The notes below the pieces were generated by a model. The model saw nothing but the letters and a program-made list of their open reading frames with translations. It searched no databases and was not told the origin of the DNA. The translations under genes and the position numbers were made by a program. DNA of 64,000 nucleotides from an uncultured Verrucomicrobiae bacterium (GTDB taxonomy: Bacteria > Verrucomicrobiota > Verrucomicrobiia > Limisphaerales > Palsa-1400), in NCBI GenBank assembly GCA_963764165.1, contig CAVXRD010000002.1:2464001-2528000 (forward strand). The letters run 5' to 3'. How positions within the stretch are numbered: the first letter of the stretch is position 1; each line of letters begins with the position of its first letter. Shown in pieces: positions 6,465 to 53,077 of the stretch.

Positions 6465-9050
6465 TCATCTTGCATCAGCGGGAGCGAGGATCATTACGGC
6501 CCAAGGTTTGAGGCTGACCGAAGCCCGGCCATGCCGCACTTCGACTGCCGGGACTGCACGGGGTATGGGCTCAATTTGAGGACGACCATCTCGAGTGGTG
6601 GGTGCGGTGCGGATGGCTGCCTGTGCCGCATCCAACCAGTCAATGAGGCGTGCGTTTCTGCCGACTTGAGCGCTCGATAGGTCAACCGACTGGCACTTGT
6701 CACTGCGATTCACGAGCACATAGACATGCTCGTCTCCCAAGTCACGGGAATATGCCAGGAGGTTGCGTGCGTCGTCCGCCAACACGGTGTGAAAAAAGCC
6801 GCTGTGCAATGCTGCCAGACGCCGATGCAATGCAATCAGCCGCGCGTAGCAGTCGAACAGATCCTGCTTGAACTGCACTTCCGGATCGTCGTAAGGCTGC
6901 AGGTCCTTCCAGATCATCGGCTGGCGGTCATCGGGGTCTGTTCCACCCCACATGCCCACTTCGTCGCCGTAATAAACCATCGGCGAGCCTGCGCAGGTCA
7001 TCTGCACGGCAATCGACTGCTTCATGCGGGCCCATTCCAGGTCGTTGGGCTTGGAGGTGTTGTAATTGCCCCGGCCTCGGCGGCCTGCATCGCTCTCGGC
7101 GGGGAGCGGCCGGTCGGCATTAACGAAGCTTGATGCCCATCGCTCGGTGTCATGGCTGTCCACCAGATTCATTTGGTCCAGCGCAATCTGGAACGGATAC
7201 AGCATGATCATTTGCTGAAGGCGCTGGGCGAAAACGCTGGCGGAAATTGCCGAGTTGGACCGATTGACAAAGAATTCTCTCAGCGCATTGGCAAATGGAT
7301 ACTGCATGGTTGCGTCCCAGGCATCACCGCCGAGATAGCTGAAGGCTGGCGTCCAGATTTCGCCAGTTATAAAGGCATCGGGCTTGATGGATTTGACCAG
7401 GTTGCGGTAGGTGACCCAGAAAACACGCGGCACGTTCTGCGCGTAATCAAGACGGAAACCATCCACGCCGCGCGAGGGATCGCCATCAGGCGCCAGCCAA
7501 CGTTTGGTGACGTTCAGGACGAAATCTCTCGGGCCGGGAGCCAGGCCCGTCTCCGGGTCCTTCTTGAATTCGGGCATGTTGCCATTGATGGAATCGCCAA
7601 AGCTCATCCACGACAGCGGATCCCAATTCGTGACGGTGTACCAGTCCGCATACTTGGAATTGCGGCCGTTTTGTTTCAAGTCCAGGAACGGGAAGAACTG
7701 CGTGCCGGAGTGATTGAAGACGCCATCGATGACTACCTTGAAACCTTGCCGATGCGCCTCAGCTACGAAGTCCAGGAACAGCTTGTCCGACTTCGTCCAT
7801 GTCCACGTCGCCGGATCTTCGGTTTCGCCCGACGGTTGACTGCTGTCGGCGGCAATGCCGAAATGATCGTCCACATGGCGATAATCGGTAGTGTCATACT
7901 TGTGCGCGCTGGGTGATTTGAAGATCGGGTTCAAGTAGATGCACGTCACGCCGAGGCTCCGGAGATACGGCAATTCCGATTCAATCCCCTGAATGTCGCC
8001 ACCGTAGCGGCGGTTGTTGCCGTTCCCTCGGCCTCCACGTCTGCCGCGAGCCCCATTCGCAGGAGCCGGTGGCGACCATTGAGCCGTCCACGATGTGACG
8101 TTGGCGGGATCATTGGACGTGCTGCCATTGCGGAAACGTTCCGGGAAAACCTGGTACCACACGGCTTGCTGCGCCCAGTCCGGCGTATTGAAGGAGGGCT
8201 GCATCGCGCCTTGCCACGCATGCCTGCGGGCCTGGGCCTGTGAAGTGTAGCATTGGCCGCTCGCGTAATAACATTTCGTCCGGCCAGCCTGCAGTTCGAA
8301 AAAATAACTCAAATTCGTCGTCTGGCTGAGGACAACGCCGGCGAAGTAGCTGATTCCTACGCGTGTCTCGACGGGATACAGATCGTCGCGCCGCCAGTGT
8401 TTCCCGGCCAGCGAATACACCGCTGCGCTGGAGAGGTTTCCCGCCTGGGCTCCAAAAGCAATTCGGACTTCATTCGTCGAAATCGGATCAAAGTAACGGA
8501 TGTTGCCCGGCACATGATGCAGCCCGGCCATGGCGATCTTCCCTGATTGAACCTGGGGCAGGTTGCGTCCGTCCGGCCCCACAATGACGGCCGAGTTATG
8601 GCCCCAGATTCCGTTGGATTCCTCTATATCGGCTTCGCTGTGGCTGGCGCTGTCATTGACCCAAGCACCATCGACGTAAAACCTGTAGGCGCAAGGCCCC
8701 TCGGCGAGCTTTACGTAGCCAACAAAGCGGTCTGCGCCTTCTGCAACCATTGGATTGGCGGTCTGCGACCATTTGTTAAAATCTCCACCCACGGCAACTC
8801 GATGCGGTGAATTGGTCGAGGGCGGATTGTACTCGAAGCGATGCGTGTAAAATCCCGGCTCCGCCGCCGGCACATCCACAGGCGCGGGCGCCGCTGCCGC
8901 CTGCACGGACGGCTGAACCTGCGGACTACCCGCGAGGCTGATCGCCATCCCAACTGCGAGCAGCCTCGCCCCGCCATGCCAGAGGTCATGGTCTCGGGAT
9001 TTAAGAGTCCAGGTGCAGAAGCTGCTCCCGAACGATGGACGCAATTTCAT
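6465..9050 (-). CDS. GH13 alpha-amylase/neopullulanase-like enzyme with N-terminal CBM48-like domain, probably exported
   Basis: VWYQVFPERF, YGGDIQG, HKYDTTDY, DGVFNH, DGFRLD, GEIW, DSHD catalytic regions; start uncertain (ATG 9053/9050 or 8948). Confidence 0.9.
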   Translation of the reverse strand: MKLRPSFGSSFCTWTLKSRDHDLWHGGARLLAVGMAISLAGSPQVQPSVQAAAAPAPVDVPAAEPGFYTHRFEYNPPSTNSPHRVAVGGDFNKWSQTANPMVAEGADRFVGYVKLAEGPCAYRFYVDGAWVNDSASHSEADIEESNGIWGHNSAVIVGPDGRNLPQVQSGKIAMAGLHHVPGNIRYFDPISTNEVRIAFGAQAGNLSSAAVYSLAGKHWRRDDLYPVETRVGISYFAGVVLSQTTNLSYFFELQAGRTKCYYASGQCYTSQAQARRHAWQGAMQPSFNTPDWAQQAVWYQVFPERFRNGSTSNDPANVTSWTAQWSPPAPANGARGRRGGRGNGNNRRYGGDIQGIESELPYLRSLGVTCIYLNPIFKSPSAHKYDTTDYRHVDDHFGIAADSSQPSGETEDPATWTWTKSDKLFLDFVAEAHRQGFKVVIDGVFNHSGTQFFPFLDLKQNGRNSKYADWYTVTNWDPLSWMSFGDSINGNMPEFKKDPETGLAPGPRDFVLNVTKRWLAPDGDPSRGVDGFRLDYAQNVPRVFWVTYRNLVKSIKPDAFITGEIWTPAFSYLGGDAWDATMQYPFANALREFFVNRSNSAISASVFAQRLQQMIMLYPFQIALDQMNLVDSHDTERWASSFVNADRPLPAESDAGRRGRGNYNTSKPNDLEWARMKQSIAVQMTCAGSPMVYYGDEVGMWGGTDPDDRQPMIWKDLQPYDDPEVQFKQDLFDCYARLIALHRRLAALHSGFFHTVLADDARNLLAYSRDLGDEHVYVLVNRSDKCQSVDLSSAQVGRNARLIDWLDAAQAAIRTAPTTRDGRPQIEPIPRAVPAVEVRHGRASVSLKPWAVMILAPADAR

Positions 9051-10971
9051 CATTGTCGGACAGACTGGGAGCAAGGATGCTTCGCAACCGGGTTCCGACC
9101 AATTCGAGGCTATCAATAGGCTCATTGAAAACCGTTTCCAATGCCAAAGGCGACACATGGCCAAACGTCGAGCAGTAGCTATGCGATCCGCAACCGGGGA
9201 ATATTCGCAAAATCGTGGCGATGGCCTCAAGCCAGAGTTCAAAGCTGATTTTATCGCGGGCTTGCGCAGGCGTCTCCCCTGAGCCGGCCAGAAAATGAGG
9301 GCTGATTAAATCCAGCAGGCGCGGCTGTTGCTTTGTTAAGGCCAGGAGCCGTTGCGCTGCGTCTCCCTTGAAAGGTTCGCTCCCCAGCAGGCGCGCCAGG
9401 CTGAGAACTTCGTCCAGGATGACGGGCAGATTGGTGGTGGAATTGGAAAGCAATGCGCGAACGGCGATCACGCCGACCGAGAATAAATCGCACGGTGAAC
9501 TCAGCAAAGGCCAGACTTCATACGGTGAGCGCGGGAAAGCTGTGCCCATGGCCCGCTTGAGGACTGCCAGGGTGCTGTCGCTGATTTTGGTTGGAATCGT
9601 CCGGAAACGCACTTCGCGGCTGCGAGAGCTGGTTGATTCGCTTGTGTAAACATGCGCATACAATTCCAGCCGCTCTTGCGCCAATGGCAGGCGAAACCAA
9701 AGCAAATCGTGGGGATCTAATGCCACATAATCTTCAGCCACAAGGCGTCCATCGAGCACCACCCCGTCGGTTTCGGCGGCCAGGCCACGGATGAATACGC
9801 TGCCCACGCCGGAAGATTGGGCGGCCAGCCCCTCCGGCAGGTAGGGCGAGGGCTCCGCCGAGCCCATGCGAATAAAGTAGCGCTGCTGGGTTGACGTGAT
9901 ATGGAGCGGAAAAGCCTGGCTGGGCTTGAGCAGCTTGCACTTTGCCGCCCACAGTGCCGGAAACAATTCGTTGGCTTCCGGCAGCGAAACGCAGAAGCTG
10001 GCGGGCGAAATGTTAAGCAGCGGCAATTGGTGAACTCGTATGCAATCCTGGACTTCGCGCATCATGTCCACTATGGCCGCCAGCTTCAGATAAAAAATCT
10101 CATTCAAGCGATCAGCGTGATCGCCGCCGCCAAAGCGCAAGAAAGGCAAGCCGCGGGCGCGCGAGGACCACTCTTCAAGACGTATATATGCTTTGACACC
10201 GAGCAGCCGCGTGGCCCAGGAATTGGCGCGGCCCGCATCCCATGGCTTTCCCTCAAGCACCTGGAAATAATCCTCCAATTCCAATGCATGAAACCGGCTT
10301 GCCTGAATCAATCCGGCGCACGGGTTAAAAACCACTGCCTCGGGGGCGCCGTCCTTCATCCGGTCCTTTGGCTGCACGTGTGAATTGGAAGGCGCCTCTT
10401 CCGTAAGGGCCAGGAAATTTGGGTGGCCGGCCCCGCCATCGAATAGATAGCGGTGCGGCGATTTCGTGTAGGCCGGGAGATTGCAGGACTCGAGCACGCC
10501 ATCATCCTTGCAAAGGCGCCAAGCCGAGCTTGTCACGGAGGCGAAACCTGCGCTATTGATGCGCCGGGGCTGGATAAGCAGGGGGCTTGGATTGGACGTT
10601 TCCAAGCCTGTTGTGAAGACAACATCGGGGCAGCGGGAAACACGGTCTTCGAATTCTTTGCGCCATCGCTGGTCGAAAGACGTGTTGGTCAATTGGCCCC
10701 GATAGTTGATCAACTCGGTATTGCGGAAATCAAGGGTTTGCACCCAAATCTCAAGCCAGTCAACGATCCGGCCGGACGCATCGGTGATCGCTCCCAGATA
10801 GACGCTGGCGCCGGGGATCTCGCGCAGGAGAACAAACCAATTTCCCAACGGGTCCGGCTCCGATCGGACCAGGACGCACATGGAGAGCGCGCCGACGCAA
10901 TCCGGTTGGATCGGCGCCAAAGAACAGCCTGACTCAGGCGGCAGGCGCTGCATCGAGTTTCCACTATCCAT
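9001..10971 (-). CDS. Hypothetical protein with degenerate kinase-like motifs, divergent from the T6SS genes
   Basis: Long ORF (~656 aa); HQLPLLNISPASF resembles kinase subdomain VIb and CDLFSVGVIAVRALL resembles subdomain IX. Confidence 0.7.
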   Translation of the reverse strand: MDSGNSMQRLPPESGCSLAPIQPDCVGALSMCVLVRSEPDPLGNWFVLLREIPGASVYLGAITDASGRIVDWLEIWVQTLDFRNTELINYRGQLTNTSFDQRWRKEFEDRVSRCPDVVFTTGLETSNPSPLLIQPRRINSAGFASVTSSAWRLCKDDGVLESCNLPAYTKSPHRYLFDGGAGHPNFLALTEEAPSNSHVQPKDRMKDGAPEAVVFNPCAGLIQASRFHALELEDYFQVLEGKPWDAGRANSWATRLLGVKAYIRLEEWSSRARGLPFLRFGGGDHADRLNEIFYLKLAAIVDMMREVQDCIRVHQLPLLNISPASFCVSLPEANELFPALWAAKCKLLKPSQAFPLHITSTQQRYFIRMGSAEPSPYLPEGLAAQSSGVGSVFIRGLAAETDGVVLDGRLVAEDYVALDPHDLLWFRLPLAQERLELYAHVYTSESTSSRSREVRFRTIPTKISDSTLAVLKRAMGTAFPRSPYEVWPLLSSPCDLFSVGVIAVRALLSNSTTNLPVILDEVLSLARLLGSEPFKGDAAQRLLALTKQQPRLLDLISPHFLAGSGETPAQARDKISFELWLEAIATILRIFPGCGSHSYCSTFGHVSPLALETVFNEPIDSLELVGTRLRSILAPSLSDNDEIASIVREQLLHLDS

Positions 10972-11183
10972 CCGGTTGTCAGTAACGGAAAGAGTGGGCG
11001 ATTGCAAAACAAATTAGGGAATCCCCCCGCTTGCATTCAAGACTGGGCTGATTGTCTGTCAAGAAGGAATAATAGCCGCTTCTTCCCCGCGAATCATCTC
11101 GTGGCATGCGCCTGCGCCAGAAGCGTTGGACTCGCTGGGAACCAATGCGCACCCAATGCCCCGGAACAAACAATTGCTTTAGC

Positions 11184-11237: not shown

Positions 11238-11744
11238 ATGAAATCAACAAATTGCAAATTTCCTTGTCTCGTGACGGTCGTGCTGGCAGCTCTCCTTGGT
11301 GCTGGTTGTAAAACGCCCCTTCCCAAGCCTTTAACGCTTCAGATTAAAAAGACGGCGACAGGCTCGGTAGATGTTGATGTGGTTGGAGTCCAGCCGAGCG
11401 ACAAAGACCAATTAGCCAGCATGAAGCCCGATCAGTGGTGGATGCAGCCGCCCAACGACATCATCCGCAAAGGGTACGGTGACATGATGGTCACCACTAA
11501 TTTTAAGGATGGTGACACTTGGGTCATTGATCCAACCAACCCCATTTGGAGCAAGTGGTTGGGCGCGGGAGTTAAGGAGTTGATGGTCATCGCCGATCTG
11601 GATCGCGTGCATTTCAACGACAACTCTGATACGCGCCGGAAATTTGTCACCCTGTCGCCTTCCGCATGGCCGAAGGATCGGCGAGTCGAGATCCAGGTGC
11701 AGGACGGCCGGGTGTGGGTGATGACGCCAGAAGTCGCTAAATAG
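11238..11744 (+). CDS. tssJ: Lipoprotein, TssJ-like T6SS membrane-complex subunit
   Basis: Lipobox LGAG-C; about 168 aa beta-rich (GVKELMVIADL...VEIQVQ); first gene of the T6SS run, and no other TssJ candidate is present. Confidence 0.6.
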   Translation: MKSTNCKFPCLVTVVLAALLGAGCKTPLPKPLTLQIKKTATGSVDVDVVGVQPSDKDQLASMKPDQWWMQPPNDIIRKGYGDMMVTTNFKDGDTWVIDPTNPIWSKWLGAGVKELMVIADLDRVHFNDNSDTRRKFVTLSPSAWPKDRRVEIQVQDGRVWVMTPEVAK

Positions 11745-11822: not shown

Positions 11823-14780
11823 GTGCCAACTTTCGGAGAATATGAAACTATTGGCGAACCGGTTGCCTCGCAGGAAGATGCCGGCCACCAGTCAACCGTC
11901 TGGATAGCGAAGAAAAGCGGCCCTCAGGACGGGCGGTTCTACGCTGTTAAAGTCTTCACTCCACAGCAAGATTCCAAACCCCGCCCCGGCGGCCAATTGG
12001 AAGCGGATCTGGGGCTGGAGTTTCTCGAAGGGGTCAAGCTGGTCAAAAAGGCGCAAGGCGCCCAGCCGCAGTGGCTCACGCCGATCTATGGCTTCGCGCG
12101 CACTCCCGACGGACAGAGCGCCTGGTATGCAACCGACTTCTACGGCGATGCTGCCTCCCGGCTTTCGCGTTCGGCGCAGTCTTATATTTCCCGGGGCGGC
12201 AGGGTGGATGGGCCAGCCCTGCGGCGGATAGTTTACAGCATTGTGTCCGGATGTCTGTCTTTGCAGCGGTCTCGCGGTTATTCTCATGGCAATCTCAAGC
12301 CGGGCAACATTTTTCCTGTGGGCCGGCCACGTCCCTTGCGCAAGACGAATTTTCATCTGGCGGACGCCGCTGCGGTGGCCCCGGCCCAATTGGCTGGCGT
12401 GCGGCCTTCGGATCGCCAGACAGTCGACAAATTGCTCCAGCAAACAATTGAAGCCCGGGACTTGCGAGCCGTGGGAGAGTTGATTCTGCAATTGGTCGAA
12501 GGGCGGTTGGTGGCGAATAGCGACGATATTGATTATCCCATTCCCAACTCTGGAGCCTGGGAGCGTCTCGGCAAGGAACGGGAGGCATGGCGCACCCTGT
12601 GCAATCGGCTGATCGATCCTCAATTGTCGATTGAACAAGTCAACCTCGACCTCCTGGAAAGGCAGTTTCGCCCAAGCATTATCGATAACCAATTGCCGGT
12701 GATTATTGGCACGGTTTTCGTTGCCGCCCTCCTGGCTGGAGGAGGCTACCTGGGATGGAAGTCTTACGTTAAACACAAGGAAGAGATTGCGCGCAATGAT
12801 TCCCAGAAATACACGAATGCGCTGGAGCGGGCGAATACTGCGCTAGCCTCCAATGAACTTGACAGGGCGCTGGTTGCGGCGACCGAGGCCGAAACAATTA
12901 GGCCGGGGGATTCCGCCGCGGGAAATATTATAAGCCAGGTCAAGGAAGCGAAGAAGAAAACTACGGCCGCCGAGGCCGAGAGAGTTTATTCAGCGTCGAT
13001 GACCAAAGGGAATGCGGCTTTGGTAAAGTCCAATTTCCTAGTGGCGATTTCCGAATTCCAGAATGCGTTGAAGATCAAGGAGGGTGATCCTGATGCGGCG
13101 GCGGGCCTCAATGCAGCGCAAAAGGGGAGCGCGTATAACGACGCAGTCGCGGACGCCCGAAAAGCGCTGGAGTCGGGCGATTTCAACAGCGCGCAACAGG
13201 CGGCAGACAAAGCCAGAGGGATCAGGCCGAGCGGCGCCGAGGTCACTGAACTCGACAATCAGATAAAGGCCGATCGGCAAAAGGCTGCGGACTACGCTAT
13301 AGCACAGGGCAAGCTCAAGGAGGCCAATGAGTTAAAGAAGTTAGCTAACGCTCTTGCGCGGGCGAAGAAAGCGCTAGAGGCGAATGAACTTTCCGATGCC
13401 CTTGCCGCGGCGACCGAGGCCGAAACCATTAGGCCGGGGGATTCCGCCGCGGGAAATCTCATAAGCCAGATCAAGGAAGCGCAGAACAAGGAAGCAAAGA
13501 AGAAAACTACGGCCGCCGAGGCCGAGAGAGATTATTCTGCGTCAATGACCAAAGGGAATGCGGCTTTGGTAAAGTCCAATTTCCCAGTGGCGATTTCCGA
13601 ATTCCAGAATCCTGATGCGGCGGCGGGCCTCAATGCAGCGCAACAGGGGAGCGCGTATAACGATGCAGTCGCGGACGCCCGAAAAGCGCTGGAGTCGGGC
13701 GATTTCAACAGCGCGCAACAGTCGGCGGACAAAGCCAGACGGATCAGGCCGAGCGGTGCCGAGGTCACTAAACTCAACAATCAGATAATGGCCGATCGGC
13801 AAAAGGATGCGGACTATGTCGAAGCTATGAGCCGAGGAGAGGCCGCCTTGAAAAAATTCGAATACACGGCGGCGATTTCAAATTTCATCAATGCTGTGGC
13901 CTTGAACTATAAGCAAGATAATGCCAAAGCGCAGACCCAGCTTGAGAAGGCCAAAGATTCAGGGTGCGCTCATTTTGTCGAGCTCGGCCGAAGTGCGTTG
14001 CTCTCGGGTAATTCAGCCAAAGCGCTGGAGTATGCTTTGGAAGCCCAGAAATTTAAGGCGACCAGCCCCGAGGCAAGCAAACTCATTAATGATATCAATA
14101 GTCCACCGATACCGCCCGCGCCAATAACCAATGTAATTGCCGTAAATCCGCCGACTACAAATCCACCGCCCGCCCCAGTTGGCGCTCCTTTTGCGACCAA
14201 TATGATCGGAATTGATTTTCTATGGGAACCAACCATTGCAAAATATGTCGCCGCAACGGAACTTTCTCACCAACAATATACAAAGTTGTGCCAGGAAGCC
14301 GGCAAGAACCCCCAGCAGCAAGATGAGCCGGTGAGGCCCTACCAACCAGAGAAATTCGCCTCCCAGAAATTCGCGAAGCAATTTGCAGCCGACCTTGATG
14401 CTTTCGCTTTTTCCAAGACAAAGTGCCACCTGCGTCTGCCCTCGCTGGCGGACTACTGCACCTTGGCTGAAGTGGATATCAATGGCAATAAGCCGCATAT
14501 TTTGGATTTCGACAAAAAGAAAGATGATAAGGAGTTGGTTGAGTTCGCGACGCCCGATCCCGCAGACGTTAATTCTGGCCCAACGAATGATTATCATGGC
14601 TTGATATACTTGATTGGTAACGTCGCCGAATGGACGAGCGATTACGAAAACCCGTTTGGCAGTAGCTATGCGCACATCGGAAGTTCTGCCAAAATCACCC
14701 TGCTTCGAAAACCAAGTCCCGCCGAAACCGTTGGCGTTCGGTTGATTCTGGAACCCGAGCCGCAACAAGCACGAAATTAG
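11823..14780 (+). CDS. PpkA-like pseudokinase - TM - TPR repeats - FGE-sulfatase (TagR-like) domain fusion
   Basis: YAVKVF, SHGNLKPGNIF, HLADA, DLRAVGELILQL; TM VIIGTVFVAALLAGGGYL; TPR-like helices; TNMIGIDF, LRLPS, GNVAEWT, VGVRLIL. Confidence 0.85.
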   Translation: MPTFGEYETIGEPVASQEDAGHQSTVWIAKKSGPQDGRFYAVKVFTPQQDSKPRPGGQLEADLGLEFLEGVKLVKKAQGAQPQWLTPIYGFARTPDGQSAWYATDFYGDAASRLSRSAQSYISRGGRVDGPALRRIVYSIVSGCLSLQRSRGYSHGNLKPGNIFPVGRPRPLRKTNFHLADAAAVAPAQLAGVRPSDRQTVDKLLQQTIEARDLRAVGELILQLVEGRLVANSDDIDYPIPNSGAWERLGKEREAWRTLCNRLIDPQLSIEQVNLDLLERQFRPSIIDNQLPVIIGTVFVAALLAGGGYLGWKSYVKHKEEIARNDSQKYTNALERANTALASNELDRALVAATEAETIRPGDSAAGNIISQVKEAKKKTTAAEAERVYSASMTKGNAALVKSNFLVAISEFQNALKIKEGDPDAAAGLNAAQKGSAYNDAVADARKALESGDFNSAQQAADKARGIRPSGAEVTELDNQIKADRQKAADYAIAQGKLKEANELKKLANALARAKKALEANELSDALAAATEAETIRPGDSAAGNLISQIKEAQNKEAKKKTTAAEAERDYSASMTKGNAALVKSNFPVAISEFQNPDAAAGLNAAQQGSAYNDAVADARKALESGDFNSAQQSADKARRIRPSGAEVTKLNNQIMADRQKDADYVEAMSRGEAALKKFEYTAAISNFINAVALNYKQDNAKAQTQLEKAKDSGCAHFVELGRSALLSGNSAKALEYALEAQKFKATSPEASKLINDINSPPIPPAPITNVIAVNPPTTNPPPAPVGAPFATNMIGIDFLWEPTIAKYVAATELSHQQYTKLCQEAGKNPQQQDEPVRPYQPEKFASQKFAKQFAADLDAFAFSKTKCHLRLPSLADYCTLAEVDINGNKPHILDFDKKKDDKELVEFATPDPADVNSGPTNDYHGLIYLIGNVAEWTSDYENPFGSSYAHIGSSAKITLLRKPSPAETVGVRLILEPEPQQARN
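12810..13815 (+). repeat. Recent ~0.5-kb internal tandem duplication of a TPR block
   Basis: GCGACCGAGGCCGAAAC at 12879 and 13410; near-identical DNA over ~400 bp; copy 2 lacks the 24 bp equivalent to 13065-13088. Confidence 0.9.
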
Positions 14781-14986
14781 CCGTGAGATCGATGGTCAAT
14801 AAGACAGATGCGCAGTCATTTGTAAAAAAGAGGACAAAACACTTGACGCCTCTCAGGGAATTCTACTACAAAAGCATCGTCTTCAGGATGATGTGCGTTG
14901 AGCAAGCACTGTCGCGGGTGTGACCGTAATATCCTGACGGTCAAGAATTAGCTGTTATGGGGCAACAGAGCAGAATAAGTCTAAAA

Positions 14987-22261: not shown

Positions 22262-22279
22262 TTGGGCTTAATCCAAGCT

Positions 22280-27205: not shown

Positions 27206-27223
27206 TTGCGGCACCGCGATATC

Positions 27224-36609: not shown

Positions 36610-36617
36610 GAACACCT

Positions 36618-38105: not shown

Positions 38106-38211
38106 CCAATCGGCGCTTGAATTTTCCGCGAAAGTCTGTGCCTCACGGAAATGAACCAATGAAAAAATGGCTGTGGCATGGAGCCTGTCAATCAAATAAT
38201 ATACGGATATT

Positions 38212-38697: not shown

Positions 38698-38767
38698 GTC
38701 ATCAGCCGCTCCCGCAATGGCCCCGGCTGTCTGCGGGCCTTGCAGGCTGATTGCGCCAGACGATGCC

Positions 38768-39562: not shown

Positions 39563-39597
39563 GAACACGCTGACAATAATCTGCCCAACACACTATT

Positions 39598-40092
39598 ATG
39601 GCCGAAGTAATTGATAAGCTGCAGCCTTGTTTGCTGGATCGACTGATGGACGATGATCCGTCCAACAAGGAGGAAAGCCGGATGCAGCGAGTGGTCTCGC
39701 TGCAAAAGTACCGCCGGGGCGCGATTCGGGACTTTCAGTGGCTGTTTAATTCCTCCGCGTATTCCGGTTTGGATTTTATGCGCGGTGATCGCTCAAAGCA
39801 ATATCCCGAGGTCTATCGTTCCGTGTTGAATTATGGCGTGCGCCAATTGTGCGGTGTGCTCACTCCGGACTTGGAAAAACTCAAGGAGCAACTGGCCGAG
39901 TCCATTCGAAATTTTGAGCCGCGAATGTCGGCCCGTTCGGTGGACGTCAAGGTCGATATGGAACGCAATGTGATCAGGCTGGAGATCAACGGGGAACTGT
40001 GGGCAAATCCCATGCCGGAAAACCTGCACTTGGCCACCACGGTTGACTTGGAGACCGGTCAATGCCAGTTCGGAGATGCTCTGAATGGATGA
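39598..40092 (+). CDS. tssE: T6SS baseplate TssE (gp25-like)
   Basis: PCLLDRLMDDDP, SVLNYG, IRNFEPR. Confidence 0.95.
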   Translation: MAEVIDKLQPCLLDRLMDDDPSNKEESRMQRVVSLQKYRRGAIRDFQWLFNSSAYSGLDFMRGDRSKQYPEVYRSVLNYGVRQLCGVLTPDLEKLKEQLAESIRNFEPRMSARSVDVKVDMERNVIRLEINGELWANPMPENLHLATTVDLETGQCQFGDALNG

Positions 40093-42978: not shown

Positions 42979-42989
42979 GGATCATAAAC

Positions 42990-45704: not shown

Positions 45705-46517
45705 ATGCCAATGACTCTTGACGCCATTCGTTACACAGTTCGCCCGGGCGACAACCTTTCCCGTATCGCGCAAGAGCGTGGCTACGCAGATTGGAAAGCT
45801 ATCTACTTGAGCGATTGCAACGCCGCTCTGCGGCAGCGCCGCCGTGATGCCAATCTGATTCAGCCGGGCGACGTGGTGATGCTTCCGCCCAAGTCGGCGG
45901 ATGTTCAATCGACGCTCAAAAACCGGCTTGCCGCCCTCCAAGCCCTCCGCCGCCAGGTGGCGGACATGTACGGCCAAATCGAGCGTGAGTTAGACTCCAG
46001 CTACGAATCGGCCAAGGGACGCGGGGAGGCGGTCGATACCGCAGCCAAGGTACTGGGCATTTTGACTGGCTTGGGAAAAATCACCGTCAAGGGCATGGCG
46101 GCGATGAAACTCTCTGGGCATGCGCTCGCCGAAGCCAACAAGGAGCTGGGCAAGGAGGCCGTTAAGTTCTCATTCGATCCCGTGCAGGATGTCGCCCTGG
46201 AAAAATACGGCGGGAGCTTAAAATCCGAGGATTCGTTGCTATGGGCTCTTCCCAAGGTTGTAGTTCAATCCTGGATTGATATGACCACGCCAAGCTACTG
46301 GGCGAACATCTACGCCCAACTCAGGAATGGCGCTTCTTGGAGTGCGGCTGTCACGACTTCAGCCTCTGATATCCGCGCGCAGACGTTGTCGCGTTTGAAG
46401 CAACAGCAGGACGCTTCCCTGCGGGGGCTTGATGCGAAAATTGTGGAAACCAACCGGCTCCTTGGGTATTTCACAAAACCGGTGTCCACCCCGATACCTA
46501 TCAGCGCCAAACCTTAA
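45705..46517 (+). CDS. LysM-domain protein with helical/hydrophobic C-terminal part; candidate effector
   Basis: YTVRPGDNLSRIA...NLIQPGDVVMLP; coiled coil, then amphipathic VLGILTGLGKITVKG; no signal peptide. Confidence 0.8.
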   Translation: MPMTLDAIRYTVRPGDNLSRIAQERGYADWKAIYLSDCNAALRQRRRDANLIQPGDVVMLPPKSADVQSTLKNRLAALQALRRQVADMYGQIERELDSSYESAKGRGEAVDTAAKVLGILTGLGKITVKGMAAMKLSGHALAEANKELGKEAVKFSFDPVQDVALEKYGGSLKSEDSLLWALPKVVVQSWIDMTTPSYWANIYAQLRNGASWSAAVTTSASDIRAQTLSRLKQQQDASLRGLDAKIVETNRLLGYFTKPVSTPIPISAKP

Positions 46518-46585
46518 AGTTATGAAACAAAACAAACCCTTGCCGGCATCCGGGAGAACAAGGAACTGGAACCCGCTTTCCGCCC

Positions 46586-47071
46586 ATGGCGATTGAAGAC
46601 AAAGATGTAAACGGTTGGATTTCCAAGCTTGGCATAACGCCTGCGCCGCTGGTTCAGCGAAACATTCGCATAGCCCTGGAGTTCTTTCTTAGACAAATGC
46701 CTTCTTTGCTGGATGAAACCAAGGAGGGATTTCTGCGCGGAATCGACTTGCATTCGAATGTCCGCACGGAGTTCTTGCAGCCGGGCGCGACGGTCGCGGC
46801 ATATCGTCGAAATGGCGAAGAGCTGTTCAAGTTATTTTACACCAAAACCGGCGTGTCCAAATACGACTTGGGGATCGTGCCCTATAACCGGAAGTTCCAG
46901 AAGTTTAAGGTGGCGTTCCCGGGCGAAGTGCTGGTGTCCAAGTGTGCGAGCTACATTTACGCGTCGTCCGATGACGCTCTTGCGGGCCGGCGCCTCTGGT
47001 CAGTTCCAGGTGGCGGCCGTGGCATTCAGTTCATCATTCCCAATTCGAGACGATGCCTGATTGAAACTTAA
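46586..47071 (+). CDS. Stand-alone polymorphic toxin domain, Ntox46-like
   Basis: Pattern GID..V....LQPG, FYTKTG...LGI, VLVSKC, GGGRGIQFII; located in the effector zone. Confidence 0.6.
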   Translation: MAIEDKDVNGWISKLGITPAPLVQRNIRIALEFFLRQMPSLLDETKEGFLRGIDLHSNVRTEFLQPGATVAAYRRNGEELFKLFYTKTGVSKYDLGIVPYNRKFQKFKVAFPGEVLVSKCASYIYASSDDALAGRRLWSVPGGGRGIQFIIPNSRRCLIET

Positions 47072-47100
47072 CTTATTACTTGTGCGACAGCGGCGATAAC

Positions 47101-47916
47101 ATGGCAATTTCATCTTCAAAGCTGATGTGTGGATTAGATCCATGGGACCTGGCTCCCCGGACCTGCGGGCCGTTGGGGCATAACGATGCCGCGGATCCGT
47201 TTGGCCTACTAAGTGGAGATACGCCCGGCGCGTGCGGGATCAACGATTGGGCTGCTCCGGAAAAAATAGACGAACGATCACCTGCGAAGCCATTGCCGCC
47301 GACCCCGGCTGGAAAGGACGGTGGCACGAATTTCACAGTGGAGCAGGGACAGATTACATTTGACGCTGAAGGAAACGATAATCCTAAGAGCCTCTATTTT
47401 AGCCGGCATTTGCACCATCCTTCCGATAGCTCTGGGGTGACGATTGGCCGCGGGTACGACATGAAGGAGCGCAAGGCAAAACAAGTATCGGATGATCTGG
47501 CCGCAGCTGGAGTTCCTCAAACTCTGGCGGATAAATTCGCCAAGGGCGCGGGCTTGAGCGAGGATGACGCGGATGAATTTGTTGCCGACAACCGTGACAA
47601 GCTCGGAAATATCACCCCTGAGGCGCAGAAGCAATTATTTGAGCTTGCTTATCCTGTATACCTTAAAGACGCTAAAAGGCTCTATGATAAATGGACTTCA
47701 GGTGTCAAAGGATCTGTTGCGTGGATGGATCTCAGTCAAGCTGTTCGAGACGTATTGGTTGATTTGAGGTACCAGGGAGCCGCAACGAAGGCCCGATATC
47801 TGGCCGCTGCCAAAGGGGGAACGGAAGATCTCATTGAAATCATCGCAAGCCAGCTCAAGGATTACGAACCGGGAAGGCACCGCATAGCTTACCTGCAACG
47901 ATTCGGGGCAACATGA
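47101..47916 (+). CDS. Pesticin-C-like muramidase, candidate T6SS peptidoglycan effector
   Basis: GQITFDAEG, YFSRHLHHP, SGVTIGRGYDM, ITPEAQKQLF, VLVDLRYQG. Confidence 0.88.
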   Translation: MAISSSKLMCGLDPWDLAPRTCGPLGHNDAADPFGLLSGDTPGACGINDWAAPEKIDERSPAKPLPPTPAGKDGGTNFTVEQGQITFDAEGNDNPKSLYFSRHLHHPSDSSGVTIGRGYDMKERKAKQVSDDLAAAGVPQTLADKFAKGAGLSEDDADEFVADNRDKLGNITPEAQKQLFELAYPVYLKDAKRLYDKWTSGVKGSVAWMDLSQAVRDVLVDLRYQGAATKARYLAAAKGGTEDLIEIIASQLKDYEPGRHRIAYLQRFGAT

Positions 47917-47953: not shown

Positions 47954-50719
47954 ATGCCGCCAGTCCAGAAAAATCGCCTGCTCGCCATTGGCACGCCGCT
48001 CGGTGGCGATGTGCTGGCTGTTCGGTCCATAGCCGTCCAGGAGCAGCTAGGGCGGCTGTTTCATATCGAAGCTGAATTGTCCAGCGAGAATGCGGATATC
48101 AAGCTGGACGATGTGGTCGGGCACAACGTCACGGTCCGGATTAATATCGGCCAAAACGTCGAGCGCTACTTTAACGGGGTTGTCAGCCGGATGGCCCAGA
48201 CGGGAAATAAAGGCGGCTATGCGCATTACCACGCCACCATCGTTCCCTGGTTCTGGTTTCTCACTCGGACCGCTGATTGCCGCATATTCCAAAACAAATC
48301 CATCCCGGATATCATCGAAGAAGTATTCAGCGGGCACGGCTTGACCGATTTTCGCCCGAGCCTCTCCGGAAGCTATTCTCCGCGGGAATACGTCGTTCAA
48401 TATCGGGAGACGGACTTCAATTTTGTCAGCCGTCTCATGGAAGCGGAGGGAATTTATTACTTCTTTGAGCACGAGAATGGCAAGCACACCATGGTGCTGG
48501 CTGACTCCATCAGCGCCCACAATCCCTACCCGGATTATGGGGAAGTGACCTTCCAGGAACTGGAAAAGGGCGCCAGCGGGCGCGAAGTCATCACTGAGTG
48601 GACGATGGAAAAAGAGGCCCAGCCGGTTGCCTATGCCCTAAATGATTTTGATTTCAAAAAGCCGAAGGCTTCATTGCGCGCCAACTCCAATGTCAGCCGC
48701 GATTACGGCGCCGCCCAGTTCGAGATCTACGACTATCCCGGCGAATATGTTGCCGCCGGGGATGGCGACCGCCTCACCGGCGTCCGGTTGGATGAACTCC
48801 AGAGCCAATACGAACTCCTTCACGGCCAGGCCAATTGCCGCGGAATCGTTACGGGCTCGACATTTACCCTGAAGAGCCATCCCCGTGACGACCAGAACCG
48901 CGAGTACCTGGTTACAGGCGCCTCTTTGCATGCCGACGCGGGCGAGTTCGCCAGCGGCAAGGCCGAGGGAGAGTTTTTCTCCTGCAACTTTACCGCGATG
49001 GACAAGAGCCAGCAATTCCGCCCCACGCGATTGACTCCCAAGCCCGTCGTGCAAGGCCCGCAAACCGCCATCGTCGTTGGCCCTTCCGGCGAGGAAATCT
49101 ACACCGATGAATACGGCCGCGTGAAGTTGCAATTCCATTGGGATCGCTACGGCAAGTCCGATGAGAATTCGTCTTGCTGGGTTCGCGTTTCCCAAGAGTG
49201 GGCGGGAAAGAAGTGGGGGGCCATGCGCATTCCACGCATTGGACAGGAGGTCATCGTCGAATTCCTGGAAGGTGATCCTGACCGCCCGATCGTCACCGGG
49301 CGGGTATATAACGCGGAAGCCATGCCGCCCTACCCGTTGCCCACAGAGAAAACCAAGTCGACGGTCAAATCCAATTCTTCCAAAGGCGGCAACGGCTTTA
49401 ACGAGATTCGCTTTGAGGACAAGAAAGGCAAGGAGCAGATTTTTGTCCACGCGGAAAAGGACGAAGACGTTCGCGTCAAGAATGATTCCCGTGAGTGGGT
49501 CGGGAACAACCGACATCTCATCGTTATCAAGGACCAGACGGAGAAGGTCAAAGGCAACAAGCATTTGACTGTGGAAGGCAACCGGGTCGCGAAAATCCAA
49601 GGCAATCAAAGCGAAACTGTGGCCGGTGACAACAAGACGATGGTCTCCGGCAATGACCATCTTTCAGTGCAGGGCAGCCAGAAAACTCAAATCGGCGCCG
49701 ACCATAACCTCGACGTTTCGAACAATTCCAATAATGCCTGCGGCAATGATCTGTCCTTCAAAGCCGGAATGAACATTCATGAAAAGTCGGGCATGAATCA
49801 CGCCGTCGAGGCCGGGATGACCGTTCATATCAAGGGCGGAATGTCGATTGTGATTGAGGCGGGCATGGAGATTTCGTTGAAAGCGGGCGGGAGCTTCATT
49901 GACATCGGGCCCTCCGGCGTAGCCATCTCAGGCGCGATGGTCATGATTAACAGCGGCGGCTCGGCCGGAGATGGGCCAGACTGCTCGCCGACCGCCCCGG
50001 AGGACCCCGACAGTCCCGATTCCCCCGCCGATCCGGATGAAGCCGGCGACGCAGTGTCTGGCGACGTCACAGATGCCAGCGACAACTCCGCCGACAGCGA
50101 TTCCGTGGTGGATGGCGAGTCGAACCGCATCGAGGACGAATCCGATGAAGATGAAGCCGACGATGAAGGCGGTGATTTGGAAGTCAGTAAGACATGGCTC
50201 TCGGAAGATGGGGCAGCGGCTGTTTTCGGTGACGACCAAAATAATTTTTCGGTGGGCGCTTATGATCTCAGCGCCACCTCCGGGATTTCAGTCGATCTAT
50301 CGGAAAAAAGCGTTAATGTCAACTTGCTCACTGTGGCGGCCAGCGCCACGGCTTTGAGCGCCACGGCTTCCGGCACCGCGATGGGAGGAGCCGTCAAAGC
50401 CAGCGCCTCGGCGGATGTCCTGGCCGCCTCTGGAAATGCCTCGGCCGGCCTGACGCTGAGCCCCGAGGCCGCCGATATTCACGCCAACGTTGGGGCCAGC
50501 GTCGATTTGGTTTCCGCCAAGGCCAGCGGGCAAATAAAAATCCCCCTTTTCGGTCATACCTTGACCTTGGGAGCGGCGGCTTCCGGTCAAATTGGAGCCT
50601 CAGCTTCCGCCCAGGCCAGCGCAGGCTATAATGCCGAACAGGGCGCTTACGCCTCCTTTGGCGCAAAACTCGGATTGGGATTGGGTGGGGGGCTGAACTT
50701 TAGCGTCGGTTTCAAATAA
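47954..50719 (+). CDS. vgrG: VgrG spike with C-terminal extension (evolved VgrG)
   Basis: VQYRETDFNFVSRL, GPQTAIVVG, YGRVKLQFHWD, IPRIGQEVIVEFLEGDPDRP, gp5 beta repeats; acidic linker plus ~180-aa Gly/Ala/Ser domain. Confidence 0.97.
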   Translation: MPPVQKNRLLAIGTPLGGDVLAVRSIAVQEQLGRLFHIEAELSSENADIKLDDVVGHNVTVRINIGQNVERYFNGVVSRMAQTGNKGGYAHYHATIVPWFWFLTRTADCRIFQNKSIPDIIEEVFSGHGLTDFRPSLSGSYSPREYVVQYRETDFNFVSRLMEAEGIYYFFEHENGKHTMVLADSISAHNPYPDYGEVTFQELEKGASGREVITEWTMEKEAQPVAYALNDFDFKKPKASLRANSNVSRDYGAAQFEIYDYPGEYVAAGDGDRLTGVRLDELQSQYELLHGQANCRGIVTGSTFTLKSHPRDDQNREYLVTGASLHADAGEFASGKAEGEFFSCNFTAMDKSQQFRPTRLTPKPVVQGPQTAIVVGPSGEEIYTDEYGRVKLQFHWDRYGKSDENSSCWVRVSQEWAGKKWGAMRIPRIGQEVIVEFLEGDPDRPIVTGRVYNAEAMPPYPLPTEKTKSTVKSNSSKGGNGFNEIRFEDKKGKEQIFVHAEKDEDVRVKNDSREWVGNNRHLIVIKDQTEKVKGNKHLTVEGNRVAKIQGNQSETVAGDNKTMVSGNDHLSVQGSQKTQIGADHNLDVSNNSNNACGNDLSFKAGMNIHEKSGMNHAVEAGMTVHIKGGMSIVIEAGMEISLKAGGSFIDIGPSGVAISGAMVMINSGGSAGDGPDCSPTAPEDPDSPDSPADPDEAGDAVSGDVTDASDNSADSDSVVDGESNRIEDESDEDEADDEGGDLEVSKTWLSEDGAAAVFGDDQNNFSVGAYDLSATSGISVDLSEKSVNVNLLTVAASATALSATASGTAMGGAVKASASADVLAASGNASAGLTLSPEAADIHANVGASVDLVSAKASGQIKIPLFGHTLTLGAAASGQIGASASAQASAGYNAEQGAYASFGAKLGLGLGGGLNFSVGFK

Positions 50720-50720
50720 C

Positions 50721-51734
50721 ATGGAAAATGATCCTCAGTTGATTTCGTATGGCGCCCGCATTTCCAAAGCGGCGCTGCAATCGCAATATGCATCGGTCAT
50801 GGTTCCCGCTCCCGGCTCGCCGTCGCACGGATGCCGCATCGTGCTTCCGAAATCCGCGGCGCGCGCTTCCAACGTGGAGCCCCAGCCTATTAAGAAGGGT
50901 GCGCTGGCAGTTATCGCTGGATTCCAAGTGACTCCCGCGGTGCTCGTTCAGATTTCCGGGACAATCATCGAATTTGAAATCAACCTGGCAGACTGGCTGA
51001 AATTCGAATTGCAATCCAGAGGGATTGAGCTTGATCTGGTGTCGTCAAAGATTGATCCCAACGGACAGGTTGTTCATGGAAACACCACCGGTCCAACTGG
51101 CTTTCGCGGGCGGGTCGTGGCGCGGAACAATGGCCCGAACATACTTTTGCTTGCCAGCCAGATGCCCGAGAACGCGGAGGCCGGCGTTATCGAAACCATC
51201 GGCCTGGCCGCTGCCAGCTTGGATTTGACCGCTCCATTGCATCGTCAATTGATGGAGCCTTTAGCCCCCGCGCAAGATCAAAAACCGAGTTTTCGATTTC
51301 AATACCCCAAATCATGGACGATCAAGCAGGCGGATGCTGCCTCTCCGTCGATTTCTGCTCTGGAGATCAAGATTACGAGCCAAACGGATACTGTTGCCTA
51401 CTTGCGCGCTCACTACGATTCCAATGTTATTTCAGGCGAGTCAAAAATTGGGATAATGAAAGACAGATTAATAAAGCAACTCACAGAGGCGGGCGTGGCT
51501 GTTGGCGAGATGGCCCCGCTGGCCCCGCTGGCGGAAAAGCCCGCGATGTCCCGCTTTGCCGGTCCGGCGCGCATGCCCAATGGCGAAGGGATGGCGGCAG
51601 TCGCGGTCCAGCCGGTTGCGACTGGGTGGCTGGGAGTGATACTCATTTCGCCGGGACGGAAGATGAATCCTCTGGCATGGCTGCGGGCCAAGCGGTGCTT
51701 CGAAATCGTCACCGCCACCCTGGCGGTAATTTGA
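50721..51734 (+). CDS. Hypothetical protein, DcrB/PsbP-like fold candidate (adaptor or immunity)
   Basis: Starts 1 nt after the vgrG stop; FRFQYPKSWTI and RIVLPKS motifs suggest two PsbP-like halves. Confidence 0.55.
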   Translation: MENDPQLISYGARISKAALQSQYASVMVPAPGSPSHGCRIVLPKSAARASNVEPQPIKKGALAVIAGFQVTPAVLVQISGTIIEFEINLADWLKFELQSRGIELDLVSSKIDPNGQVVHGNTTGPTGFRGRVVARNNGPNILLLASQMPENAEAGVIETIGLAAASLDLTAPLHRQLMEPLAPAQDQKPSFRFQYPKSWTIKQADAASPSISALEIKITSQTDTVAYLRAHYDSNVISGESKIGIMKDRLIKQLTEAGVAVGEMAPLAPLAEKPAMSRFAGPARMPNGEGMAAVAVQPVATGWLGVILISPGRKMNPLAWLRAKRCFEIVTATLAVI

Positions 51735-51750
51735 TTCGCCTCAGACCGCC

Positions 51751-52437
51751 ATGCCGCTAGCGCCAGATCCGTTAAGCCCCGCCGCGCGGGAAGTCATTCA
51801 TCCGGCAATGACCCCTTGCCAGCAAGCTCAGGCCCTTAATCAGAAACATCTTTCAGTCGACGCAGTCAAAGCCCTCGCCTACGGTATGCCCGATCACAAA
51901 GCTGTTCTGTGGGCCATTGCCAGCGCCGGAAAGGTTTCAAATCCGGCGCACATTCCAGACTTGAGAGCGATCGAGGCCGCCAAAGTCTGGGGAGCCAATC
52001 CAACGCCTGCAAATCAGGAGGCCGCCGCAATGGCCGCCGCAAAGACGGACTTCAAGACGCCGGGCGCCTGGGCCGCCCAAGCCGCGGCATGGGTGGGCCT
52101 GAGTGGTGGATTAGCGGCTCACGCAGTGGTTGGCTCGGTATTGCTGGCAGCGGCACAGGGCGGGAAACCGATTTCGCCGCCGGGCGCGCCACCCGTCCCA
52201 ACTGTGCCGGGCGCGCCGCCACTTCCGGTGACGGCAGTCACACTGCCTCAAGCTCCTCGAGTTCCCTTGTTTGGACTGCCGTTTTTCAAGAAGCCGGTCC
52301 CACCACCCCTCCCGGAAGCACCCAAGCTGGGCCCAGACGGACTATCCCTTACAGCGGCTCAACGTGTCGAGATGGCCAAAAACTGCGATCCGTTTCTCAA
52401 GCTTGGATGTGAGGTGGGGCACGGCAAATCCGTTTAG
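51751..52437 (+). CDS. DUF6931-like T6SS-associated protein
   Basis: AVKALAYGMP..KAVLWA, W..NPT..N..AA, TPGAWAAQAAAW, AHAVVGSVLLAA; between vgrG and PAAR. Confidence 0.7.
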   Translation: MPLAPDPLSPAAREVIHPAMTPCQQAQALNQKHLSVDAVKALAYGMPDHKAVLWAIASAGKVSNPAHIPDLRAIEAAKVWGANPTPANQEAAAMAAAKTDFKTPGAWAAQAAAWVGLSGGLAAHAVVGSVLLAAAQGGKPISPPGAPPVPTVPGAPPLPVTAVTLPQAPRVPLFGLPFFKKPVPPPLPEAPKLGPDGLSLTAAQRVEMAKNCDPFLKLGCEVGHGKSV

Positions 52438-52441
52438 CCTG

Positions 52442-52660
52442 TCAACGCGTCGGAAAGGCGGCGGGAGGGCCGGGAGCCGCTGCCCGGGCATCGTACGGTG
52501 TGTCGTACGGGTTCAGGGTGGATCCCGTTCCTGTTTCCCGATATTGAGAGCTTGGTTGTCCTGTGCTTGAATCGCGCCCGGATTGTTCCTGGCTCGCGCA
52601 TCCCACGCCTGACAGCGCAGCCGCGATCGCCGCCGATAAAACTAATAACATTCGCAACAT
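52442..52660 (-). CDS. Small putative lipoprotein
   Basis: MLRMLLVLSAAIAAALSGVG-C lipobox-like signal; 72 aa. Confidence 0.6.
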   Translation of the reverse strand: MLRMLLVLSAAIAAALSGVGCASQEQSGRDSSTGQPSSQYRETGTGSTLNPYDTPYDARAAAPGPPAAFPTR

Positions 52661-52752
52661 AAGTTCGTTTCTTCCTTCTTACATACATATACAAGACACC
52701 TAAACGGATGCGCGTGCCTCCTGACGAGGGCATCGGACTTTCCGGTTCCCAA

Positions 52753-52781
52753 TTGACAGGGTGCTTCCTACCCGCTACGGT
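52753..52781 (+). promoter_or_regulatory. Putative sigma70 promoter of the PAAR gene
   Basis: TTGACA-17 nt-TACGGT ending 6 nt before ATG 52787. Confidence 0.5.
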
Positions 52782-52786
52782 TGCTT

Positions 52787-53077
52787 ATGCCGCTGGCAGC
52801 CCGATTAACAGACATGCATGTTTGCCCGATGGTGACTGGTCTCGTCCCTCATGTGGGAGGGCCCATTAGCGCGCCAGGTGTGCCGACAGTGCTCATCGGC
52901 GGCATGCCGGCCTCAGTCGTCGGAGATATGTGTGTTTGTGTGGGCCCTCCTGATACCGTCGCCAAAGGTTCATCGACCGTGCTTATTGGTGGCAAGCCCG
53001 CAGCCCGAATGGGTGACTCGACCGCGCATGGGGGTGTTATTGTCTTGGGCTGCCCCACGGTAATCATCGGCGGATGA
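52787..53077 (+). CDS. PAAR-domain spike tip protein
   Basis: LAARLTDMHVCP, PHVGGPI, GKPAARMGDSTAHGG. Confidence 0.97.
   Translation: MPLAARLTDMHVCPMVTGLVPHVGGPISAPGVPTVLIGGMPASVVGDMCVCVGPPDTVAKGSSTVLIGGKPAARMGDSTAHGGVIVLGCPTVIIGG

Follow-up and report, generated by a model that had tools for sequence, protein, structure and literature searches.

A verrucomicrobial type VI secretion locus with two pseudokinases and a Fha-like protein that lacks the FHA domain

A 64,000-nucleotide stretch from the genome of an uncultured Verrucomicrobiae bacterium (contig CAVXRD010000002.1; here called the window, on which all positions are counted) carries a type VI secretion system (T6SS) with genes for a membrane pseudokinase and a surface adhesin set among those of the membrane complex. 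The gene run is real and is conserved across the Verrucomicrobiota, and the T6SS variant that it encodes is real, conserved and apparently undescribed. It combines a soluble pseudokinase, a bitopic membrane pseudokinase, a Fha-like protein without an FHA domain (FhaL), a TagF-like protein and a two-partner secretion (TPS) pair. Our preferred reading, to which we give a probability of about one half, is that this is a lineage-specific T6SS in which contacts between pseudokinases and the Fha scaffold, not phosphotransfer, would provide an assembly checkpoint. Gene content, motif changes and co-occurrence were observed directly, and we infer every mechanistic step from them.

The soluble pseudokinase, FhaL and the membrane pseudokinase

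The 9001 gene (Table 1) encodes a kinase-fold protein that the initial annotation had left unnamed; it has no transmembrane (TM) segment and no Pfam or NCBIfam match. An AlphaFold model from a 98-row alignment (308 homologues were found among 8000 candidates scored) reached a predicted local distance difference test (pLDDT) score of 86. In a wide VIA search with this model the top 50 matches were all kinases, the best being the IRAK3 pseudokinase (Z 14.7, root-mean-square deviation 4.2, 266 aligned), and in the Atlas 10/10 best family matches belonged to one clan. Foldseek found no kinase with the model, and the sole PDB profile match (E 0.009) was rejected as unsupported by the fold. All three catalytic motifs are changed, with W70 at the beta3 Lys, N314 at the catalytic Asp and S319 at the loop Asn. 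Among 108 verrucomicrobial homologues the beta3 position is Trp in 94, the catalytic Asp is replaced by Asn, Gly or Ser in every one (Asp 0/108), and the loop Asn is Ser in all 108.

FhaL has the C-terminal domain of Fha/TagH and the gene position before tssK, and lacks the N-terminal FHA domain. T6SS_FHA_C is matched, weakly, by 19/36 family members (E<=0.1) and FHA by none of the 36, so the initial description of a Fha-like protein without FHA is borne out. Sequence searches of the PDB with the FhaL profile gave nothing significant; the single-sequence fold is poor (pLDDT 51), with an all-helical N-terminus in this low-confidence model. A search for longer relatives yielded one protein, P0279, with FHA, ClpN-like and FhaL parts, and FhaL aligns over nearly its full length to P0279 residues 384-642 (HHalign probability 96.4, E 1.4e-9).

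P0279 led to 31 metagenome loci bearing FHA (many of them near-copies; 20/31 annotated), in which neighbouring proteins are named Thermoanaerobaculia or Holophagales by their sources (Acidobacteriota-type). The longer loci read 9001 homologue, FHA-FhaL, lipoprotein, tssK, tssL, tssM, soluble tagF, hcp. The 9001 homologue lies upstream of the FHA gene in 27/31 loci, and three of the misses begin at most 370 bases from that gene. Its beta3 Lys is retained in 21 loci, 23 have an HLDxxxxH loop, and His-Gly stands at the DFG position; the FHA motifs GR, SxxH and NGT are present in 30/31. No membrane pseudokinase or FGE match was found in the 31 loci, and no PP2C among 30 neighbours scanned on their contigs. 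In these loci the positional partner of an FHA-bearing Fha is the soluble 9001 kinase, and not, as the initial annotation implied, the membrane protein. As an observation in its own right, the genes upstream of the FHA gene (L174-L204) form an unannotated kinase-fold family that keeps Lys and Asp and has His at both the loop Asn and the DFG Asp, possibly an atypical metal-dependent kinase to judge from these residues. One locus carries two tandem FHA-Fha paralogues with altered phosphothreonine motifs (L202:8939-12951).

A quick tree, unrooted and built from 31 rows with two near-copies left out (the FHA-negative label checked by locus only for rows with loci), places FHA-positive and verrucomicrobial rows on opposite sides of one 100% branch. 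The proposal that kinase and FHA changed together is upheld by this for the soluble 9001 gene, once on the tree, and does not extend to the membrane protein.

The kinase fold of the membrane pseudokinase (open reading frame (ORF) 11823) was recognized with a nine-sequence profile that matches solved kinases. The top match (E 1e-4) is to the kinase-homology domain of a receptor guanylyl cyclase, atrial natriuretic peptide (ANP) receptor 1, which has the same HGNLK loop; this is a eukaryotic receptor, and the likeness is one of motif, with no orthology claimed. The ANP receptor domain binds ATP and acts allosterically. PpkA was not among the 60 best PDB relatives listed, and a profile-profile comparison of the membrane with the soluble pseudokinase gave no similarity (probability 0.2). 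ORF 11823 has HGN in place of HRD, a TM segment at 293-311, and weak TPR and FGE matches (FGE E 1e-3, below cut-off). The family comprises 479 clusters at E<=1e-30 and 1253 at 1e-3, and its named relatives are Verrucomicrobiota, one a Pedosphaera sp. Counted over the best 150 relatives, the beta3 Lys is kept in 140/148, the His in 149/149, the loop Asn in 144/149 and the DFG Asp in 142/149, while at the catalytic Asp position 126 of the 149 have Asn and just 8 have Asp. The HRD Asp and an intact DFG motif, both features of PpkA (TagE), are lacking. On this pattern of conservation the loss of the catalytic base is old and selected, with nucleotide and metal ligands kept, and the protein probably binds ATP-Mg without turnover. 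The label "dead kinase" fits the missing Asp (141/149) and overstates the case for a protein that retains its ATP and Mg residues.

The ectodomain beyond the TM segment is exchangeable, with TPR, PEGA, immunoglobulin-like (Ig), cadherin-like, MBG or chitobiase repeats, and FGE occurs in 18/42 long membrane pseudokinases scanned (among the five best families listed per protein). In the window an exact internal repeat in the TPR region (12964-12978 and 13510-13524) points to a rod that expanded recently. Proteins with an HGN pseudokinase and a TM segment, several with a terminal FGE, also occur as orphans, in genomes that lack tssC and with no adjoining T6SS gene (L054, L055, L057, L058, L087, L091). 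In G016 (L023-L025) the membrane pseudokinase, tssM and tagF each appear frameshifted, perhaps through an error of assembly or through decay.

Presence of the 9001 gene follows that of the T6SS tail. It was found in 26/30 tssC-positive and 2/14 tssC-negative genomes, FhaL in 24/30 and 2/14, and TagF in 26/30 and 2/14; these 44 genomes were chosen to take in every one positive for tssC or for the membrane pseudokinase, with three close relatives added; related genomes do not count as independent, and many are incomplete. Across 401 genomes of the order, the membrane pseudokinase is present in 37, tssC in 28 and both in 23. Beyond the window's order, a 9001 homologue was found in 6/400 genomes of the phylum. 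Three loci (in G586 and G803, both closed, and in G480) contain fhaL, tssK, tssL, tssM, soluble tagF, a 9001 homologue and the lipoprotein gene, with no membrane pseudokinase match in the genome and no TPS in the stretch fetched. The genes of these three loci make up the core set.

A core layer and an envelope layer

In the preferred reading FhaL, TagF, the lipoprotein and the soluble 9001 pseudokinase would make up the core layer. This layer is homologous to the operon that places an atypical kinase ahead of a Fha with its FHA domain, and would have arisen from such an operon. In Verrucomicrobiota the catalytic residues of the 9001 kinase and the FHA domain of Fha are absent; the pseudokinase would bind FhaL directly and couple the membrane complex to baseplate and tail assembly, with TagF presumably staying the brake. 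The envelope layer is the bitopic HGN pseudokinase, encoded beside the lipoprotein gene, with its exchangeable periplasmic rod. It may anchor or gate the TssL-TssM-FhaL platform at a chosen site, TagF in the window's order would be tethered by a matching rod, and the neighbouring TPS or other surface adhesin could hold the target or mark the site.

A predicted 9001-FhaL complex gives this contact weak support, with an ipSAE of 0.40 where the best of three controls reached 0.00, agreement between runs in 35% or more of contacts, and a partner pLDDT of 71. Passes this low are reached by 18/157 solved complexes, and both passing mismatches (of 215) were likewise low. The weak score is one of several points that weigh against the reading. 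Four of the 30 tssC-positive genomes (56-95% complete) lack the 9001 gene, and G785 has tssC, vgrG and tssK but no 9001 match. The membrane pseudokinase occurs in 14/37 carriers without tssC, several of them without an adjoining T6SS gene. The joint loss of kinase residues and FHA counts as a single event, since both map to one branch of the unrooted tree, which sets no direction for the change. The loci of G1010, G499 and G785 each hold an intact HRD/DFG kinase (that of G499 with a weak FGE), and G480 has an FHA protein close to tagF. Finally, 25 kinase, 4 FHA and 3 PP2C matches lie elsewhere in the window's genome, making action in trans possible.

These last observations would be expected if phosphorylation were supplied in trans, or by residual HGN activity, with the pseudokinases as substrates or vestigial passengers and the TPS genes hitch-hiking. 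Intact kinases in three relatives' loci, the genome's wealth of kinases, FHA proteins and PP2Cs, the catalytic Asp in 8/149 membrane homologues, and the occurrence of TagF without Fha or kinase in 22% of 741 contexts (in the accessible part of bioRxiv 10.64898/2025.12.08.692957) all lean that way. FhaL, however, lacks a phosphothreonine reader and none of its Ser/Thr positions is invariant (T22+S7 of 36 at best), none of the genome's own FHA proteins carries the FhaL module, and both pseudokinases are strongly conserved over hundreds of sequences, which makes them unlike vestiges. We regard this reading as very unlikely.

Other searches for phosphorylation parts agree with the initial annotation in several respects. 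There is no PP2C/PppA gene in the window, and no FHA either. A genome scan with the locus family profiles matched only the locus, plus one weak generic kinase, and no kinase, phosphatase or Fha of T6SS type turned up elsewhere in the genome. Recent decay is contradicted by the residue and domain counts above (Asp 8/149 and 0/108, FHA 0/36), which mark the loss as old. An FHA profile matched only G480 over 32 verrucomicrobial fhaL-region loci and nothing in 16 further stretches, and a Pfam FHA search of 33 genomes gave none beside these loci among the matches listed (all but 2). The phrase "phosphorylation-free" nevertheless goes too far, given that an intact kinase lies in three distant verrucomicrobial loci and an FHA protein in a fourth.

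An intact CHASE2-kinase lies some 7 kb beyond the cluster (59858-61573); because it adjoins extracytoplasmic function (ECF) sigma genes, we rejected it as the T6SS kinase. Its catalytic loop is intact, and an ECF-type sigma gene lies on either side of it (region 58506-62300); the CHASE2 domain spans two overlapping ORFs, and the first of the sigma ORFs is seemingly truncated. An FHA protein fused to an apparent GTPase-type domain (C4:394327-396081 of the genome) is unrelated to the T6SS.

TagF, paired rods and surface adhesins

The TagF-like protein has the GK, DF and SDR residues of TagF, and its gene follows tssM. Across 27 members G26, K27, D33, D100, R104 and P108 are invariant and the S is kept in at least 90%; the F of the DF motif is His in most relatives. 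The TagF_N profile matches 6/27, all below cut-off and not including the window protein, and its cut-off is passed by 3/3 homologues from FHA-bearing loci; PDB sequence searches with the family profile gave nothing significant. The residues required for Fha binding, as defined in the accessible part of PMC5995506, are conserved here. In 28 genomes of the order TagF is soluble in 7, has a TM segment with a 22-residue tail in 1, has a TM segment with an actual or probable ectodomain in 18, and is cut by contig ends in 2. Outside the order it is short in most loci. Where TagF and the membrane pseudokinase are both fusions, their ectodomain types tend to match. Both have TPR in the window, G205 and G322, joined by FGE in the window but not in G205 or G322; both are Ig in G397, and in G125 both combine PEGA with FGE. 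The two proteins of G393, G055 and G226 share FGE alone. The pseudokinase and tagF genes of G322 are 93.5% identical over 771 bp of DNA, and the other seven pairs tested gave no DNA match. Such matched, recombining rods fit spacers that reach the same partner better than opposed sensors, and suggest that the two rods are matched spacers.

Opposed sensors were central to the initial annotation, which proposed an allosteric push-pull switch: the membrane pseudokinase as a PpkA-TagR fusion activator, TagF-FGE as repressor, each sensing the periplasm, and contact through TpsA flipping the switch. Both window proteins are indeed bitopic with FGE, the FGE domain is the protein-binding domain by which TagR engages PpkA (in the accessible part of PMC13713981), TagF retains its Fha-binding residues, and the TPS genes lie directly before fhaL in 12 genomes. 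The proposed sensors are nevertheless dispensable: FGE is present in only 18/42 membrane pseudokinases, TagF is soluble in 7/28 genomes and short in most loci beyond the order, complete T6SSs occur in G586, G803 (both closed) and G480 without a membrane pseudokinase match, and the 31 FHA-bearing loci yielded neither membrane pseudokinase nor FGE. Nor is PpkA among the 60 best solved relatives listed, and TpsA C-termini have no clear common motif. TagR itself is a stand-alone periplasmic FGE protein accompanied by TagQ and TagS/T; here FGE is fused and optional, and no TagQ, TagS or TagT match was found among the window ORFs scanned. Because FGE, the TagF ectodomain and the TPS genes are optional or exchangeable, the two-sensor switch is weakened and is now the lesser reading, one that we think unlikely.

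The adhesin itself is a TPS (type Vb secretion) system, with a TpsA that bears a TPS domain beside a TpsB that bears POTRA and barrel; by BLAST, this TpsB is the only one found in the genome. The 12 genomes with tpsB directly before fhaL are G000, G003, G016, G043, G125, G151, G226, G236, G336, G393, G877 and G785. TPS genes follow tagF in G655, G562 and G703 (a few kb on in G577), follow the pseudokinase in G055, and lie divergently beside fhaL in G252. In G205, G160, G330, G322 and L030 the slot holds a barrel-like gene (our own reading, with no Pfam match) and a large exported repeat protein, and in G002, G154, G568, G966 and G994 it is empty. Ten TpsA C-termini showed no conserved motif that might dock on the rods. 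The survey makes the surface protein a recurrent but optional partner, and many lineages have TPS genes alongside the module.

Four genomes have the module without a tail: G655 (one contig, 100% complete), G562 and G703 (99%, same genus), and G125 (98%, another order). They keep the membrane pseudokinase, fhaL, tssL, tssM, tagF and the adjoining tpsB-tpsA as long ORFs. Genome searches did not find tssC, the VgrG hub, tssK or the 9001 gene, and tssK is gone from the exact fhaL-tssL slot in all four. In the same searches G785 and G1010 were positive for tssC and VgrG, and G785 for tssK; one search lacked a positive control. Decay is a possible explanation of these modules. That the same parts, including the soluble pseudokinase, are missing in two lineages fits a division of labour in which the envelope layer goes with the adhesin and the soluble pseudokinase with the tail.

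The tail-less genomes, with envelope genes next to tpsB-tpsA, also favour a model in which the TPS adhesin is positioned, kept in place or let go by TssL-TssM-FhaL-TagF together with the membrane pseudokinase, the tail being an optional addition. Against it, TPS systems require TpsB alone, the TpsA C-terminus is not conserved, the independent tail-less lineages number only two, and many tailed loci (e.g. G002, G154, G586, G803, G966, G994) have no adhesin gene in the stretch fetched. An adhesin-centred function of this kind seems improbable to us. A bolder extension of the preferred reading, which we hold tentatively and consider rather doubtful, is that the verrucomicrobial membrane complex would be a trans-envelope contact or positioning machine with the TPS adhesin, onto which the soluble pseudokinase would plug the tail; tail-less lineages would adhere without injection, and the FHA-bearing relatives would amount to a family of atypical kinases in which both metal-binding positions are His.

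Locus organization and relation to known systems

The proposed gene order and strands, with the plus-strand run at 11238-34333 followed by tail and baseplate genes to 53077, were confirmed (Table 1), and gaps between genes of the run are -4 to 176 nt. TssK, TssL, TssM-N, TssA, TssB, TssC, Hcp, TagJ, TssE, TssF, TssG, ClpV and VgrG pass their Pfam cut-offs. TssA-C, Hcp, TssE-G, ClpV, VgrG, TssK, TssL and TssM are all present, as in subtype i, and the genome (7.0 Mb, 97% complete) has a single tssC. The label "tssJ-like" rests on position and lipobox: the lipobox G-C is invariant in 20/20, no Pfam or PDB match was found (including a PDB search with the family profile), and the Atlas leads to a cluster with IglE_N in 37% of members. 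TssM matches only IcmF-related_N, in the window protein and 3/3 homologues.

Table 1. Features of the T6SS locus in the window
Feature	Position	Strand	Basis and remarks
Core pseudokinase, soluble kinase fold	9001..11007	-	True start probably near 10971-10953; fold model and alignment
Lipoprotein in TssJ position	11238..11744	+	Longest ORF from 11106; lipobox G-C
Membrane pseudokinase	11823..14780	+	Kinase domain 1-290 with HGN, TM 293-311, TPR-like rod, weak FGE
TpsA, 2434 aa, filamentous-haemagglutinin-type repeats	14957..22261	+	TIGR01901 E 1e-15; TPS domain E 6e-23
TpsB transporter	22262..24181	+	ShlB and POTRA_2
FhaL, Fha/TagH-like scaffold without FHA	24231..25148	+	T6SS_FHA_C matches in family; HHalign to P0279
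TssK	25155..26516	+	Pfam/NCBIfam
TssL, short form	26513..27205	+	DotU E 2e-25
TssM, divergent periplasmic half	27206..30793	+	IcmF-related_N
TagF-like domain 1-310, TM 356-374, coiled/TPR rod, FGE	30812..33298	+	TagF residues; FGE E 3e-11
TssA	33305..34333	+	ImpA_N
S-adenosylmethionine (SAM) methyltransferase, 520 aa	34353..35915	-	Pfam; syntenic in many relatives
tssB, tssC, hcp, tagJ, tssE, tssF, tssG, clpV	36076..45695	+	Pfam/NCBIfam
Candidate effectors: LysM protein, Ntox46-like, pesticin/lysozyme-like	45705..47916	+	Pfam; only pesticin match above its cut-off
VgrG with C-terminal extension, unknown ORF, DUF6931, PAAR	47954..53077	+	Pfam/NCBIfam; PAAR by eye

The SAM methyltransferase gene lies antisense between tssA and tssB, with the same synteny in G002, G003, G205, G160, G236 and G397, and a second methyltransferase-like gene follows tssA in G205, G330 and G322. 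VgrG has an acidic linker and a Gly/Ala-rich tail, the PAAR protein (52757-53077) was recognized by eye only, and no immunity gene was identified in the candidate effector set (45705-52437). A scan for promoters and terminators was near chance. Many relatives, and not the window's genome, have a second, divergent tssC-like gene of 470-655 aa (G393:C33:140080, L138:11056-12465, G577:C2:254954, L146:10544-12508).

With the H1-T6SS of P. aeruginosa (TagQRST-PpkA-Fha1-PppA, TagF) the locus shares the T6SS core, TagJ, the TagF residues, the C-terminal domain of Fha and a membrane protein of kinase fold that carries FGE on its periplasmic side. It differs in having no catalytic Asp, FHA, PppA or TagS/T, in its fused and optional FGE, in an extra soluble pseudokinase and a membrane-tethered TagF, and in a lipoprotein and a TssM periplasmic half that are unrecognizable. 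The Acidovorax TssW-PpkA-Fha axis (PMC12607579, accessible part) also sets assembly position through an outer-membrane anchor, an inner-membrane kinase and a Fha scaffold, as may be the case here, but its PpkA is active and phosphorylates Fha. Acinetobacter-type systems, which have TagF but neither Fha nor kinase (TagF-TagZ, TslA; accessible parts of bioRxiv 2025.12.08.692957 and PMC9251886), have phosphorylation-free control, TagF at the membrane and contact-site assembly via periplasmic proteins; all three would apply here. In the verrucomicrobial locus, by contrast, TagF carries its tether as a fusion, a remnant of Fha is retained along with pseudokinases, and TPS genes are encoded alongside.

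The closest precedent for a pseudokinase in a secretion operon is EssB/YukC of the type VIIb secretion system (PMC9600267, PMC12599244; accessible parts), a bitopic protein with a non-catalytic scaffold role, as would be the case here. YukC is an interaction hub, and its pairing with an FHA protein is apparently phosphorylation independent. The machine is a different one, however: YukC cannot bind ATP, whereas the membrane protein here keeps Lys, Asn and Asp, the partner here lacks FHA altogether, and there are two pseudokinases in this locus. With a T6SS context and no EssB match in Pfam or NCBIfam, the relation is one of analogy only. The accessible part of PMC12599244 describes seven pseudokinase families, none from a T6SS, and that of bioRxiv 10.64898/2025.12.08.692957 does not mention Verrucomicrobia. 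In the mostly open-access literature searched, with subscription journals thinly covered, there was no paper on a T6SS pseudokinase, a TagF-TM-FGE fusion or this verrucomicrobial locus, in keeping with the view that the arrangement is undescribed.

The loci form a natural series, from kinase plus FHA (Acidobacteriota-type) through pseudokinase plus FHA-less Fha to trans-envelope rods and adhesins and finally tail-less modules. The series bears on an open question: the part that Fha and TagF play beyond phosphorylation, and the choice of assembly site by a T6SS. Two unannotated pseudokinase families are added to secretion biology, where YukC/EssB is the precedent in the literature consulted, and a phylum that is abundant but little studied gains a description of its T6SS. 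Should the tail-less modules work, the membrane complex of the T6SS would have a role that needs no injection.

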